DNA of 28,417 nt from Oligoflexales bacterium (GTDB lineage: Bacteria; Bdellovibrionota_B; Oligoflexia; Oligoflexales; Bog-1112), in assembly GCA_045105515.1 (NCBI GenBank), contig JBGCDR010000088.1, forward strand, positions 1 through 28,417. The letters run 5' to 3'. Below are positions 21,001-28,417 of this stretch, piece after piece (the stretch's first letter is position 1; every line of letters begins with the position of its first letter). Position numbers: made by a program.

Positions 21001-24000
21001 CAAGAACTAGTGAAAAGATTATCGCCTAGATTTAAAATTTTATTTATTCAAGTCAAATTGGATGAATTGCTTTCATGTAGTTGCGGAGATATTTGAATGA
21101 GAATGGCGTTAAGTCTCTATGCACATAGATAATTTATTCCAGAACCGATAGCTAGTCTCTTAGCTTACTAGTAAATATTCTATCGTTATCATCCGAAGAA
21201 AGATTGAACACTGTAATCTATTTTTTTAGCTGGATGTTAAGTTTGTATATAAAAGGCAAATCATCTGCAATTACTAATTTAACTAAATTTTTAATGGCTG
21301 CCATGATCATGTGGGTTTGCCCGACTAGTTGTAAAAAAATACCTCAAACTCCTGACAGTGGGTTGCAAGAAAAAAATATAGAATTAATAACATCAAATCT
21401 TGATGCAAATATATTTAATATTGTCATGGATTCACACTTTTTTGATTCGTTTGAGCTAACCAGCGAAGATCCGGAAATTTCTCTTGAAAAATTATCAAAT
21501 ACCAAAGATTTAGCTTATAGCAAGATAAGTACTAGTTTGATTGAAGATTCTTCCCCTCTTCGTGCATTCGCAGACGAATTGGGAGAGGTCACTATTTTAT
21601 ATTCACTGGATGATCTGGAAATAATTGATGATGCCTCCGCTTCATATTATCAAAATGAGCATCCTTTTGGTGAAACTTTAAAGCTAGCCCGCAGGGTACA
21701 TAGTGGAAGCGTAGCACCTAGCTTTAGAGACCCTGTTATTCGATTAGAGAATGTAAAAGATTTAGAAAAGAGGATTAGATGGTTGAATGATGATCATAGC
21801 GATTGGTACACCCCGAGACAACTTGAAAGAAGAAAGCAACTCGAAGATTTAGCTGATGTACATAAAAAAGACTTGGTATTATATCGATTTGTGGACAAAG
21901 CGATTGCTAATAAACAGTTAAAATCACAAAGTTTTTCAGATTCTGATTACAATCATTATTTCAATCAATTTGAGCCAGGTCCCGCTTTGGGTAGGCGTGC
22001 TGGTCGAGGGGTCTACGCTGTTAAGCCTGGTTTATTGTATTCGGTTGGAAATATAGCAGAAAACTCTCTGAAAAGAGCCGGTGTCAAGGTGCTGCCTGGA
22101 GAAGCAACTGGTCTTTTAAAAATAATTGTAAAAAAAGGGACAAAATACATAGATTTGAAAGATCCACGTGTATTGAAAAGGTTAAGAAAAAATAATTTTT
22201 CCATGGAAGAAATAAGTTATCTTGACCCAAATATTAGCATCAGATTCCATGAATTTCCGAAGCATGATTTTTGGGTACTTAAAAATATCAGCGATCGAAG
22301 AAATGTACTGATTAAAAAACCAAATCCTAAAGATTTTGAAAATTTAACTCCCGCGCAAGTGTCAAAATTTCGTAAAAATGGGCGAGAATTGGCCGCTCAC
22401 TTTAAAAAATTTGCACCAGAAAATATCCAAAAAATTACATTGAAAAAAAATATATTTAGTGCGGCTGGAAGCTTAATAATCAAACCTCTAGTAGCTATTT
22501 ATAAATTTATTTTGAACAGTTCGAAAATTCATCAGCGCCTCGCCAATCTCTTTTATTATGCTCAACATGCTCGACTTGCTAAATTAAATGAAAATTCAAA
22601 TCTCAGTATTATCCTAAATAAGAAAACAACTCTGTTTGATTTGAAAAAATCTCTGGATAACAAAGAAATAAATTATTATGATCCGAATAATGGAGAATTA
22701 AATTTTCGTAATAATAGAGAAACTATTTTTTTTGCAGGAGGTATAGAAGAACTAAACAAAAGATTCCCACCTCCAAAGTATAGATTAACAACTGATAGCA
22801 TCAAAAAGCAAGACATAAAAAATGTGCTCGCAAGTCATGTGAAAAGTACTGAAGGTATTAGTCTACCAGAATCTAATCCAATTCTTTTTGTTGATATTAT
22901 AAGGAATCCCAATATGGGAAAAATAAATAACATTCCATCAAATCAAAAAAAATTTAAAGCAAATGAAATTATCCATTATTATGACAAGCACTATTCAAAA
23001 CCATATTCTTTGGAAAATAGGACAGTTAGCTATAAGAATGATGTAGATATTCTTGTTTCTCATCGGCCCAATCACGGCCTGTCTCATGGAATTAGAAGCG
23101 GAGCTTTGTCCGTGGATTCAGTGATGCTAGCGAATACTCACTTAAAACATACGGAATTTGGTAGGTTTTGTGAGAAAAATATCCTTATGGACCCAAACTT
23201 TATTAAAAAAATTGAACATTATTCAATCTCAAATAGAGCAGCTAGAATAGGGGAAGGTGCAGATAAAGATATTGGTGGTACAACTCAGCGAAATGCTTAT
23301 AATTTTTTCAATGATCCTTATTCCAAAATCATAATACCCAACGTTATAGAGAGAAAAAAGTACGCGAGGGCCTTTTTTACTGTCTTACAGATAAGATCAG
23401 GGAAAAAAATGAATGCATTCCTAAAAAAAAGTAATAAGAATATTACGAATGATGAAAAAAAATTTATTGATTCATTGGATCTGGAAAAAAATCCTCTGAC
23501 TAAAGAAGAGAAGTTTCTTGGTACGATAAGCTACTTGGGGCATTTCAACGATCATAGAAGAATCAATTTTTGGAGTCGAAAGGTTTCATTTGCTGAACAG
23601 AGAGAAATGCTTAAGGGAGTAGGTTTAGGAAATCGAGAGGCTAATAGCTTAATTTATACACTTTGGACCCGTTCTGGAACCTATTTGAAAGCAACAGGAG
23701 CTGGTGATGCAGATATTTTTACTCACTTAGGAAAACGCCAATCTGCATGGGAAAAATATTTTGGATCGATAAAAAATAGATATAGCCAGACTAAAATTAG
23801 TTCTCTTTATGACAATAGATATAGGCATGTAAGAAGTGAAGATCTATTTTTTAAATCTGAAATGGATGCTGTATTTACCTATGAAAATATTAAGATTGAA
23901 CAGGCTCATATGAGCTATGACCGTCAGCTTTTGAATAAATTTGAGTCCGAAATTGATTATTTGATGTATAAATAGAAAGGGGAAATATTGTTACGTATAT

Positions 24001-27000: not shown

Positions 27001-28417
27001 TCAGGGTATTTGGCTGTAGATGCTGTTATGCTGATAAGAAGACATTTGGGTAAGACGCAGATAGGAAAATTTGTTCAGAGAAAAATTTATGAAGATCCGA
27101 AATTTGTGGAAAAAATCCAACATTACGCGATTCTAAATCGTGCAGGTAGGATTGGTGAGAAACTGGATGCCGATGAGAATGGTACAATCAGTCGAAATAT
27201 CTCGAATTTTTATAAAGATCCGCTCACCAATAAACTATTTTCATCTCAGGAAAAAATAGCTTATTCTCGTGCACTATATTCTATTGCATCAGCCAGAAAT
27301 GGAAAAAAGCTACCAGAATTTATTGAACATAGTTTGAAGAATGCAAGTCCTGAAGAGAAACAGCTCATTAGGAGCCTGGATTTAAGTAAGAAGCTGCTTA
27401 CATCTGAAGAAAAATATATTGGAGCAATCGCATATTTAGGGCACTTTAACGATCATAGAAGAATGAAATTTTGGAGCAGGAGTATATCTTATTCCGAGCA
27501 AATGGAGTTACTCAATTATGTTGGAATCGATAAAGATAGTGCAAATAGTTTAATTAAAACTTTATGGACAAGGTCTGGGCATTATCTTAAAGCAACAGGG
27601 GCTGGTGATAGTGATATTTATAGGCATTTAGGGAGTAAAGACAAAGAATGGGCAAATATATACGGTGGTTTAAAAAACAGGTATACGGTCAGGACATCTA
27701 AATATGCATTTGATGATCGATATCGTCATATTAGCAATGAAGAGTTATTTTTTAAAATGGAGACCAACCCACAGCTGCTGTTTGAAAGGCTCTCACAGAC
27801 TCAGAAAGATATGAATTATGACGTGTTTTTGAATGAATTTATTGATGATGTTACTTATTTATTACCTCTTAGAAATTAGTTTGATAAAATTTTTTATATA
27901 AGACGACAAAGGCATAAAAAATTATTGAATGAATTGTAGCTTTTATACATTGGCTTCCGATAATCATCGAAAAAAGGTATATTTTTACATTGCGAAATCT
28001 TCAGTGTGAGTCAAATAATCTTCGGATTAATTTTATCTGTGTAGCAATAAGATCATTATCTTTTGGAATTTCTAGTTGATCAATACTATTAAAATCTATC
28101 AGAAATTGACTATCAAAATTCCCATTTTTTAATAAGTAATTTGACAATAAGTATGAATATTTTTGAATACTTGAGAGTGTCTCATTGCAAGAGATTCTAT
28201 TTGAAAGAGGGTAAAAACATAGTCGATTGCAGGCTTTAAAGCAGCATTTAGACGATTATCAATATATGCATTGCCAAATTTAATGTATAGGAATTTCAAT
28301 AACTGATTGGCGGGATTTATCGTTGTAATTTTAAGGGTTTTTAAATTAAGTATTGCCCGATTATTTTTAGGTTGTCATGAAACTTTTCCTCCGTTTTTGT
28401 GATTGCTCTTCCATAAT

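Follow-up and report, generated by a model that had tools for sequence, protein, structure and literature searches.

To our knowledge, the SidE-type phosphodiesterase (PDE) domain has until now been studied solely in effectors of Legionella. For SdeA, a catalytic role is reported for H277, E340, and H407, and the same source describes stand-alone PDE erasers, transfer to a second nucleophile supported by this triad, and an activity on protein-linked ADP-ribose or phosphoribose for all SidE-type PDEs characterized so far (PMC6941232). The best-studied case of such a PDE placed behind an ADP-ribosyltransferase (ART) is Lem26 (lpg2523), which is described with the ART at residues 1–337 and the PDE at residues 494–779, and which has been proposed to act in sequence, first by ADP-ribosylation and then by PDE processing (PMC11696984, PMC12977470, PMC12522546). 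In favor of sequential action, the PDE-dead variant H545A is reported to accumulate an ADP-ribose signal on host proteins, whereas the wild type shows none (PMC12977470). The PDE of Lem26 is also described as dispensable for the measured phenotype (PMC11696984, PMC12977470), so that the role of SidE-type PDEs behind ARTs is unsettled even here.

We analyzed a window of 28,417 nucleotides from an uncultured environmental Oligoflexales bacterium (the entire stretch of contig JBGCDR010000088.1 from position 1 to 28,417), in which the genes g01499, g01500, and g01501 follow each other on the + strand with gaps of 12 and 10 bases, all three reading frames being open. The proteins encoded by g01499 (21243..23975, +; 910 aa) and g01501 (25231..27879, +; 882 aa) are 45% identical over residues 10–878 (E 4.2e-235; 44% in a 4-sequence alignment). 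Reading frames and alignment thus bear out a preliminary description of the locus, which had reported tandem paralogues of 45% identity flanking g01500. The longest reading frame of g01499 begins at a TTG at 21204, and 21243 is the start named in that description. Both proteins are composed of a putative signal peptide with lipobox, a conserved N-terminal region, a domain with a predicted ART fold (hereafter N-domain), a helical linker, and a SidE-type PDE. On the + strand of g01501, signal peptide and lipobox occupy 25231..25284, ending at Cys18 (by eye), followed by the conserved N-terminal region (25285..25722; residues 19–164), the N-domain (25723..26430; residues 165–400, supported by AF2, Foldseek, VIA-align, and conservation), the linker (26431..26862; residues 401–544, from the secondary structure of the model), and the PDE (26863..27876; residues 545–882). 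The corresponding N-domain of g01499 lies at 21786..22496 (+; residues 182–418, HMM envelope) and its PDE at 22950..23972 (+; about residues 570–910). The linker is weakly conserved between the two proteins (25% identity), and the g01501 model contains one long helix at residues 386–449. When residues 25–160 of g01501 were compared with the collected homologues by phmmer, only P0003/P0004, P0005, P0001/P0006, and P0007/P0011 matched; judged by these matches, region 19–164 is common to the closest relatives alone.

Between the two paralogues, g01500 (23988..25220, +) encodes an orphan putative lipoprotein of 410 aa with a lipobox (LLGSC) after the signal peptide, an acidic low-complexity stretch, and two hydrophobic segments. 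We found no Pfam or NCBIfam family and no HTH in it, no homologue either in the related loci or in the rest of its genome, and no usable Atlas match. In the loci of homologues, the neighboring genes vary from one locus to the next. Among the other genes of the window is one for a eukaryote-like Ras-family GTPase. Signal peptides and lipoboxes of the three proteins were judged by eye: the sequences ...FFIAIIGC18 (g01501) and ...LLGSC (g01500) fit the classical lipobox, and ...CPTSC30 (g01499) is atypical. The Cys after the signal peptide (Cys30 in g01499, Cys18 in g01501) is invariant in 4/4 full-length homologues, and a hydrophobic N-terminus is present in 30 of the 38 N-domain representatives among the matches listed. 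The g01499 and g01501 proteins are probably Sec-exported and lipid-anchored, a cellular location predicted from their sequences.

The Pfam family SidE_PDE (PF12252; cut-off 25) matched g01499 with 31.2 bits (residues 582–778) and g01501 with 38.4 bits (residues 555–791), the same values as those given before, and a whole-genome search with this family led to the same two places. A single-sequence search of the PDB returned nothing relevant, again as described previously. A PDE profile of 23 sequences, applied to the PDB, recovered SdeA (E 2.5e-16), SidE (1e-15), SdeD/DupB (7e-13), DupA (2e-12), and lpg1496 (3e-10). The SdeA residues H277, E340, and H407 align to columns that are invariant in 23/23 PDE sequences and correspond to H583 (26977-26979), E643 (27157-27159), and H738 (27442-27444) in g01501 (profile alignment to SdeA), and to H611 (23073-23075), E671 (23253-23255), and H767 (23541-23543) in g01499 (mapped by alignment), all on the + strand. 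Judged at this level, the C-terminal domains are homologous to the PDE of the SidE family with the His–Glu–His triad intact, which places the earlier SidE-type assignment on firmer ground.

Searching 1.84 billion representatives with a 4-sequence profile yielded 164 matches at E ≤ 1e-3, 44 at ≤ 1e-10, and seven at ≤ 1e-30. Among the best 150 of the 164 matches, 38 contain the N-domain, 117 the PDE, and five both (the two window proteins included); 112 of these 117 PDE representatives thus lack the N-domain. Within this phylum, the PDE was found in 5/131 genomes, all of one family. Fusions of N-domain and PDE were found in at least three diverged lines, i.e., the window family, P0012, and P0015. 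The N-domain is also repeatedly fused to, or located beside, Fic protein-modifying domains, and the PDE has further partners related to ADP-ribose or AMP, i.e., NUDIX in P0031 and HIT/DcpS_C in P0015. In P0105, the Pfam family ADPrib_exo_Tox was detected above its cut-off directly upstream of the PDE. In a tree of 77 PDE domains (quick search, midpoint root, long P0105 branch), a branch with an SH-aLRT of 97 sets the window family, P0012/P0013, P0017, and P0105 apart from the other 70. P0017 and P0105 are classical R-S-ExE ART-PDE proteins. P0015 is placed elsewhere, and the fusion of N-domain and PDE therefore needs two changes on the tree. The recurrent fusion, the grouping with R-S-ExE ART-PDE proteins, and the NUDIX and HIT partners speak for the earlier proposal that the ART-like and PDE modules cooperate; cooperation itself we infer from these associations.

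For the N-domain, AF2 modeling of g01501 residues 150–450 with 26 rows gave a pLDDT of 88.7 and a pTM of 0.82. A Foldseek comparison of this model with the PDB returned ART-superfamily chains for 31 of the 34 matches listed, the best being the catalytic domain of diphtheria toxin (E 7.3e-3) and MbcT (1e-2), with none at E ≤ 1e-3 among the matches listed. In an independent VIA-align search across 48,161 chains, MbcT came first (Z 8.6; 151 residues aligned, rmsd 4.2), ahead of exotoxin A, diphtheria toxin, and PARPs; NatT, ParT, and RES toxins are likewise among the structural matches listed. Of the best 50 VIA-align matches, 22 extend over the beta-rich core, every one of them an ART-superfamily chain, and the other 28 align to the long C-terminal helix alone. 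The scores are moderate, with a single Z ≥ 8 and identities of 9–16%; at this level, the model bears out the ART-superfamily fold put forward previously and assigns it to residues about 165–400 of g01501. A Pfam search with residues 150–450 gave no match even at E ≤ 10, RES (PF08808) included, and the N-domain profile gave none against PDB sequences. Membership in the RES family by sequence was considered and rejected, as hhalign returned a probability of 0.6% when the N-domain alignment of 39 sequences was compared with 25 RES proteins of this phylum. Across Pfam, the PDB profile search, and hhalign against RES, we thus found no sequence-level link to a known ART family.

The two N-domains of the window are related (E 5.1e-61 for g01499 in a profile search of its own genome) and share a set of motif residues: Y197-R198 on beta1, G237-x-G239-x-Y241 on beta2, D287, and K330 in g01501, which correspond to Y214-R215, G254-x-G256-x-Y258, D304, and K347 in g01499 (mapped via alignment). 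In 39 homologues, the R198 position on the first strand of the model is R in 30 and H in two, and on the second strand G237 is found in 37, G239 in 39, and Y241 in 37. The G-x-G-x-Y motif, the beta1 Arg/His, D287, and K330 hardly vary across 39 sequences of only about 20% overall identity, as a working pocket would lead one to expect. A Y-X10-aromatic spacing, which the tyrosines at the NAD site of diphtheria toxin and PARP also show, is present in 29/37 N-domain sequences and absent from the window proteins, where Leu (L254, after a 2-residue insertion) occupies the place of the second aromatic residue. The residue after the Tyr is Glu in 26/39 homologues and Lys in the window proteins. A strictly conserved catalytic Glu/Asp/Gln (ART region 3, at the start of beta5) was not found in the 39-sequence alignment, the best candidate being D311 (D18/N14/E3 of 39), while E320 is kept in the close family only; S-T-S and E-x-E motifs are likewise absent from this alignment. 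The preliminary description had named no ART catalytic residues, which still holds for a conserved catalytic glutamate and no longer for the Arg/His and G-x-G-x-Y motifs, now found to be conserved. Among the matches listed, many family members comprise little beyond a signal peptide and the domain (166–345 aa), and relatives come from predatory Bdellovibrionota and Parachlamydiaceae. On this sequence evidence the N-domain represents an undescribed, mostly secreted family without a Pfam model, and in its modeled fold it is similar to the diphtheria-toxin/PARP/RES side of that superfamily of ARTs.

Since a new, putatively NAD-binding ART-like domain is joined here to a SidE-type PDE, the probable function of g01499 and g01501 is an NAD-dependent modification in two steps, here outside Legionella. 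As the most likely mechanism, albeit a tentative one, we propose that a target is first ADP-ribosylated and that the PDE then cleaves the ADP-ribose down to a phosphoribosyl mark. The N-domain would bind NAD+ and move ADP-ribose onto a target, most likely a prey- or host-cell protein. The PDE (His583-Glu643-His738 in g01501) would then cut the ADP-ribose pyrophosphate, freeing AMP, and the phosphoribosyl mark would stay on the target, or the phosphoribosylated target would be handed to a second nucleophile. That the N-domain uses NAD and that the two domains act one after the other on such a target, we infer from the ART chains that account for every match to the beta-core, the NAD-site-like motifs, the recurrent fusion, the intact PDE triad, and the behavior of PDE-dead Lem26. 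Against this mechanism stand the lack of a conserved region 3 acid, the Leu in place of the second aromatic residue, and the Lys in place of Glu in the window proteins. Moreover, a lipoprotein faces the periplasm or the cell exterior, where NAD+ is scarce, and we found neither a delivery or translocation module nor a target. The moderate fold scores, the lack of a sequence-level link to a known ART family, the dispensable PDE of Lem26, and the limits of the quick PDE tree also count against it. The top structural match, MbcT, is moreover a toxin that degrades NAD and does not act as a transferase.

This last point leads to the main rival, which we consider somewhat unlikely: the N-domain could be an NAD glycohydrolase or phosphorylase like RES/MbcT, and the PDE would split free ADP-ribose into AMP and ribose phosphate. 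The pair could then act as a toxin draining NAD from prey or host, or as surface enzymes harvesting NAD from lysed cells. MbcT stands alone at Z ≥ 8, with NatT, ParT, and RES toxins listed too, and the N-domain has no conserved catalytic Glu, as in RES-type NADases. The exported lipoprotein location suits scavenging; Haemophilus takes up NAD with periplasmic and lipoprotein enzymes. Genomes of the same family are small (1.8–4.6 Mb), and because a fusion of NUDIX and PDE exists (P0031), such PDEs may sit in nucleotide-breakdown settings. However, the N-domain shows no kinship to RES at the sequence level (hhalign, Pfam), and no antitoxin-like (Xre/MbcA-type) gene lies beside g01499 or g01501, whose only cluster neighbor, g01500, has no recognizable domain. 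The nearest PDE relatives stand behind classical protein-modifying R-S-ExE ARTs, and the N-domain recurs with Fic protein-modifying domains, which favors an effector over a scavenger. The protein-linked substrates described for all characterized SidE-type PDEs point in the same direction (PMC6941232).

Less probable still is a catalytic role for the PDE alone, which, like DupA/DupB in Legionella, would erase or hydrolyze marks linked via ADP-ribose or phosphoribose, or else hydrolyze a nucleotide. In that case, the ART fold of the N-domain would be degenerate, and the domain would bind NAD, ADP-ribose, or the target and steer the PDE, as it would steer Fic in other proteins. Its pairing with two different catalytic modules fits this view, as do the unconserved region 3, the loss of the second aromatic residue and of the Glu after the Tyr in the window subfamily, the 112/117 PDE representatives without N-domain among the matches listed, and the stand-alone erasers described in the literature (PMC6941232). 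Yet the near-invariant G-x-G-x-Y, beta1 Arg/His, D287, and K330 form the pattern expected of a working pocket, and stand-alone secreted N-domains of 166–345 aa are hard to explain if the domain is purely accessory. A true SidE-like all-in-one ligase, with the N-domain ADP-ribosylating ubiquitin or a small carrier and the PDE linking it via phosphoribose to Ser/Tyr, is very improbable: the two same chemistries in one chain, the intact triad, and the Ras-family GTPase as a hint at eukaryote contact speak for it, but the ART-like domain is of another class without S-T-S or E-x-E, no DUB or other Pfam domain was found at E ≤ 1 (the presence of a SidE DUB model in the library being unconfirmed), the signals are of the Sec/lipoprotein and not the injected-effector type, N-domain relatives come from predatory Bdellovibrionota as well as Parachlamydiaceae, and, according to the cited accounts, Lem26 and other Legionella PDE proteins themselves lack ubiquitination activity (PMC6941232, PMC11696984). 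With the non-SidE ART type, no conserved catalytic glutamate identified, and the Sec/lipoprotein signals, nothing here supports the ubiquitin connection drawn in the preliminary description.

In the boldest reading, the window proteins could be the first non-Legionella members of a second, independently assembled class of NAD-driven phosphoribosyl-linking enzymes, an idea that we regard as a long shot. If it were true, a diphtheria-toxin/RES-like ART would load ADP-ribose onto a carrier or target, and the SidE-type PDE would join the charged molecule via phosphoribose to a second one, giving a protein–protein or protein–lipid/glycan cross-link. Such an enzyme would reach the cells of prey or host from the surface of a predatory or host-associated bacterium.

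Compared to known systems, the window proteins share with the SidE family (SidE, SdeA, SdeB, and SdeC) a homologous PDE with H277/E340/H407 kept and an ART-fold module in the same chain. They differ in domain order, which is opposite, in ART class, export route, and organism, and we found no evidence here for a ubiquitin substrate; unlike SidE proteins, they end with the PDE and have no R-S-ExE mART C-terminal to it. PDE family and triad are also common to DupA/DupB (SdeD) and lpg1496 (profile E 7e-13 to 3e-10), which do without an ART-like partner domain; of these, DupA and DupB erase phosphoribosyl-ubiquitin. MbcT and the RES toxins resemble the N-domain in the Arg on beta1, the Tyr on beta2, and the absence of an obvious catalytic Glu, but RES toxins work in the cytoplasm of their producer, whereas the window proteins are predicted to be exported and have no adjacent antitoxin. 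Diphtheria toxin, exotoxin A, cholix, and PARPs match the N-domain fold with Z 5.5–7.2, and the N-domain family has the G-x-G-x-Y motif in common with this group, a second aromatic residue following 11 positions later in 29/37 members. In diphtheria toxin, the catalytic domain directly follows the signal peptide, and many secreted N-domain relatives have the same layout. In contrast to this group, most N-domain members have Arg instead of His on beta1, and neither a conserved catalytic Glu nor a recognizable translocation or receptor domain was found. Lem26, compared by its published description, is of similar size and likewise combines an ART fold, a central helical region, and a SidE-type PDE with conserved catalytic His (PMC11696984, PMC12977470, PMC12522546). 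The ART-then-PDE order, presented before as a novel reversal, is therefore no novelty. At the N-terminus, the window proteins carry an additional region of about 145 aa, and whereas the ART of Lem26 is described as classical (R222-S257-E292-x-E294, like ExoT, Tre1, and C2), their N-domain is like diphtheria toxin/PARP/MbcT by fold. Lem26 is furthermore described as a Dot/Icm substrate activated by ATG8 membranes, and the window proteins carry Sec/lipoprotein signals. The novelty of the window proteins hence lies in their class of ART, in their predicted Sec/lipoprotein export, and in the fact that they occur outside Legionella, and the domain assignments, together with the absent S-T-S and E-x-E motifs, uphold the original observation that ART and PDE are joined outside Legionella with another ART subclass.

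The three genes of the cluster lie on contig C88 of an assembly of 6.29 Mb in 461 contigs (completeness 90.9%, contamination 4.8%) and are all read from the forward strand: g01499 (21243-23975, 910 aa; the longest open reading frame starts at 21204), g01500 (23988-25220, 410 aa), and g01501 (25231-27879, 882 aa). The first and the last are 45% identical over nearly their full length (E 4.2e-235). Inspection by eye revealed an N-terminal hydrophobic segment ending in a cysteine in all three, with classical lipoboxes in g01501 (IIGC18) and g01500 (LGSC); that of g01499 (PTSC30) is atypical, and its Cys30 aligns with the invariant cysteine of all four full-length homologues. 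No NCBIfam model matched any of the three proteins. For g01500, no fold lead emerged, and no homologue was found either beside any of the relatives or at another place in the genome; its candidacy as a partner or immunity protein was dropped on these grounds. Promoter-like sites (36 versus 31.8 expected from shuffled sequence) and terminator-like sites (3 versus 4.2 expected) showed no excess, and gene neighbourhoods of homologues were not conserved between loci. The G+C content of 21243-27879 is 0.338, against a genome mean of 0.389 (sd 0.023; 1,264 genome windows of 6.6 kb each); 0.95% of these 6.6-kb windows are as low, which is compatible with horizontal acquisition of the three-gene cluster.

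Elsewhere in the window, a 459-aa protein encoded on the reverse strand (98-1477) contains a small GTPase domain that strongly matches the eukaryote-type Ras family (109 bits for Pfam Ras, 62 bits for Roc), an uncommon feature in bacteria and in keeping with an organism dealing with eukaryotic cells. The forward strand encodes a CheX phosphatase domain fused to a response-regulator receiver (1693-2688), a 118-aa open reading frame with sigma-70 region 2 only, possibly a fragment (19492-19848), and an ordinary heavy-metal efflux set without relation to the finding (10689-19188), comprising an outer-membrane factor, a membrane-fusion protein with three HMBD repeats, an RND pump, and an HMBD-bearing P-type ATPase.

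The C-terminal domain (PDE; residues ~545-882 of g01501) had been assigned to the SidE-type phosphodiesterases in the preliminary description, and this assignment was borne out. Pfam SidE_PDE is matched above its cut-off of 25 bits by both g01499 (31.2 bits) and g01501 (38.4 bits), with scores of up to 64 bits in relatives. A search of PDB sequences with the single protein returned chance matches only. A profile built from an alignment of 23 PDE domains, applied to the same sequences, retrieved the Legionella chains SdeA (E 2.5e-16), SidE (E 1e-15), SdeD/DupB (E 7e-13), DupA (E 2e-12), and lpg1496 (E 3e-10), below which nothing appeared until chance matches at E 0.4. Counted along the printed alignment, the SdeA residues H277, E340, and H407 fall on columns invariant in all 23 sequences, corresponding to H583/E643/H738 in g01501 and H611/E671/H767 in g01499. 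Judged by these matches, the C-terminal domain is a genuine SidE-type phosphodiesterase domain. For this assignment, the sequence matches weigh more than the AlphaFold2 (AF2) and Foldseek figures of the preliminary description.

The N-terminal domain (N-domain; residues ~165-400 of g01501) had been described as an ADP-ribosyltransferase (ART) superfamily fold, which the structural comparisons corroborate. AF2 modelling of residues 150-450 of g01501 from a 26-row alignment (pLDDT 88.7, pTM 0.82) yielded a beta-rich core at residues ~190-380, followed by one long helix. In a Foldseek search of the PDB, ART-superfamily chains made up 31 of the 34 printed rows; none reached E<=1e-3, and below the diphtheria toxin catalytic domain (7.3e-3) and MbcT (1e-2) came diphtheria-toxin homologues, NatT, RES toxins, PARPs, and exotoxin A. 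A VIA-align scan of 48,161 representative chains, independent of Foldseek, placed MbcT at the top (Z 8.6, 151 aligned, rmsd 4.2), ahead of exotoxin A (7.2), SAIP (7.1), diphtheria toxin (7.0), cholix (6.8), ParT (5.9), and PARP1 (5.8); the tool warns that Z <8 can reflect a common arrangement. Among the 50 rows listed, 22 cover the core, every one an ART-superfamily chain, and 28 match the long helix only. The modelled N-domain is thus assigned an ART-superfamily fold because the matches are unanimous, the scores themselves being moderate.

By sequence, the N-domain stands apart. It has no Pfam match even at E<=10, none of 35 homologues matches an ART family of Pfam, and its profile finds nothing among PDB sequences at E<=10. 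Membership in the RES family was rejected at the sequence level, as hhalign against 25 RES-domain proteins of the same phylum gave a non-significant probability of 0.6%. Leads from the protein Atlas, namely PARP, Tox-ART-HYD1, and Arr-ms clusters, all remained below 0.9. The N-domain appears to lie outside every known family at this level and to represent an undescribed one.

An alignment of 39 N-domain homologues revealed well-conserved columns (numbering of g01501): R198 of the first strand, within a [YF]-R-W motif (R in 30 and H in 2 of 39), G237 (37/39), G239 (39/39), Y241 of the second strand (37/39), D287 (37/39), and K330 (37/38). A second aromatic residue follows the Y241 column at +11 in 29 of 37 sequences; in PARPs and the diphtheria-toxin group, the two tyrosines of the NAD site are spaced in this way. 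The PDE-linked subfamily, including g01499 and g01501, carries a two-residue insertion and a leucine in place of this second aromatic; furthermore, the residue after the tyrosine is a lysine here and a glutamate in most members. These columns indicate that ART regions 1 and 2 are present, which gives the N-domain the look of a functional NAD pocket, for which ADP-ribose transfer and mere NAD cleavage would both be possible. The second option leads to a reading in which the proteins form an NAD degradation or scavenging cascade, which we consider rather unlikely. For ART region 3, which holds the catalytic glutamate, no column could be assigned among the 39 homologues, the best-placed position being D311 (D18/N14/E3). 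A non-catalytic N-domain, leaving catalysis to the PDE alone, is set against the conserved columns of regions 1 and 2, and we regard it as improbable.

Searching 1.84 billion representatives with a profile gave 164 matches at E<=1e-3, and 38 of the best 150, each standing for a 50%-identity cluster, contain the N-domain. Screened crudely for hydrophobicity, 30 of these 38 have a hydrophobic N-terminal segment, in many cases directly followed by the N-domain, and the family is accordingly predicted to be secreted. Among the members with a named source are Parachlamydiaceae (P0016) and, for the P0103 cluster, Bdellovibrionota/Halobacteriovoraceae. The window's own genome encodes three copies of the N-domain; the third (contig C165; L003, L040) belongs to a protein of >1,131 aa without an obvious signal peptide, in which Fic at 286-336 (40 bits) precedes the N-domain (profile E 3.8e-46) and a serine replaces the beta1 arginine. 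Three further homologues (P0118, P0138, and P0152) are likewise fused to Fic. In another genome (L009, G006:C27), a 325-aa secreted protein consisting of hardly more than the N-domain, with FYHW for YRW (1195-2172), is overlapped directly downstream by a signal-peptide-bearing Fic gene (2151-3287). By analogy, this association would place the N-domain in the company of protein-modifying effector modules.

In the window's own genome, the PDE was found in g01499 and g01501 only, and in the phylum it was detected in 5 of 131 genomes searched, all from the window's own family (this genome and 4 of 15 other members), with none found in the remaining 115. The combination of N-domain and PDE is shared by orthologues that are 73% (P0005) and 36-37% identical (G005/P0007/P0011); the 879-aa homologue in G005 has an S-adenosylhomocysteinase-like gene upstream (translation read by eye). 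The sister species (G001) encodes a 5'-truncated PDE protein. Beyond the orthologues, the fusion of both domains was found in P0012 (729 aa) and P0015 (992 aa), the latter with an additional HIT/DcpS_C domain. In a quick IQ-TREE phylogeny of 77 PDE domains, with an arbitrary root, seven sequences are set apart from the other 70 by a branch with SH-aLRT 97, namely the window pair, P0011, P0012, the fragment P0013, P0017, and P0105 (itself on a long branch). P0015 falls outside this group, so that two changes on this quick tree are required to account for the fusion.

Within the same branch, P0105 combines pentapeptide repeats, a Pfam ADPrib_exo_Tox domain (27.2 bits, cut-off 23.4), and the PDE directly downstream, and P0017 combines a weak ART with a PDE; both show the Arg, S-T-S, and E-x-E motifs. 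Therefore, the PDEs most closely related to those of the window pair are also placed behind an ART, in their case a classical one. Scanning 40 long representatives revealed further partners, i.e., a NUDIX domain before the PDE in P0031 and an ART-PolyVal-like domain after it in P0132, all of which deal with ADP-ribose or AMP. The latter shows the motifs HGT and G-x-G-F-Y-X10-Y, and an HMM of 39 N-domain sequences, run against a set of 172 proteins, gives a weak match to it (5.9 bits, E 0.02) over the G-x-G-x-Y...Y stretch only, a lead at most. Two relatives differ in layout. One is a 777-aa lipoprotein (P0009; L042/L006, G007:C54) with the lipobox FLAC and SidE_PDE at 59 bits, in which the region before the PDE shows TYRG, STT, and E-R-E motifs by eye and a sub-threshold Scabin-like Pfam match (E 0.073), suggesting a possible, putative classical ART. 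AF2 gave no confident model of this region from a 2-row alignment (pLDDT 32), an HMM from the P0105 and P0017 ART regions did not recover P0009, and a word-index search with residues 215-470 returned nothing but one 99%-identical fragment. An MbnB/TglH-type RiPP-modification gene adjoins the P0009 gene on the opposite strand. The other is an 892-aa signal-peptide protein (L007, G008:C132, 277-2955) with a central SidE_PDE (64 bits) and, C-terminal to it, a weak HipA_C kinase-like match (E 0.013).

Our tentative preference, held at somewhat below even odds, is for an exported Lem26-like two-step enzyme, in which the N-domain, as a new ART-fold family, would ADP-ribosylate a target and the PDE would then cleave the ADP-ribose mark to a phosphoribosyl mark. 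Until now, phosphoribosyl-linked modification by an ART and a SidE-type PDE has been regarded as peculiar to Legionella, and a 2022 review (PMC9340081) confines phosphoribosyl ubiquitination to that genus. Here, the PDE occurs in an unrelated, uncultured lineage, is exported by a predicted Sec/lipoprotein route rather than a type IV system, and has as its partner an ART-fold domain from a different, so far undescribed family. The window proteins, together with the R-S-ExE ART-PDE, PDE-ART-PolyVal-like, NUDIX-PDE, and N-domain-PDE-HIT proteins, argue that "ADP-ribosylate, then cut to phosphoribose" may be a more general two-step chemistry, assembled more than once. In addition, a sizeable predicted-secreted N-domain family is defined, which would offer a fresh target for the enzymology of NAD-dependent toxins. 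We found no description of a SidE-type PDE outside Legionella in the main texts of the literature searched; the astARTe catalogue (PMC12522546) might already list an N-domain-like family. A true ubiquitin-type ligase is highly improbable.

As for the known systems, two reports (PMC11696984, PMC12522546) describe the Legionella protein Lem26 (lpg2523) as an N-terminal ART (1-337; R222-S257-E292-x-E294), a central helical bundle, and a PDE (494-779), the same order of ART, helical part, and PDE as in the window proteins. The observations of the preliminary description, i.e., the genes and both domains, hold and its interpretation is supported in part; the "reverse order" named there has its precedent in Lem26. 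In a further report (PMC12977470), the Lem26 ART is needed for toxicity and the autophagy block, and an ADP-ribose signal absent in the wild type accumulates in the PDE-dead H545A variant, a difference that its authors attribute to conversion into phosphoribose by the PDE; ADPR-ubiquitin was not hydrolyzed by the Lem26 PDE. By analogy, the window proteins most plausibly work like Lem26 rather than like SidE. Strictly, they belong to neither family, given the different class of their ART-like domain and their predicted export by the Sec/lipoprotein route.
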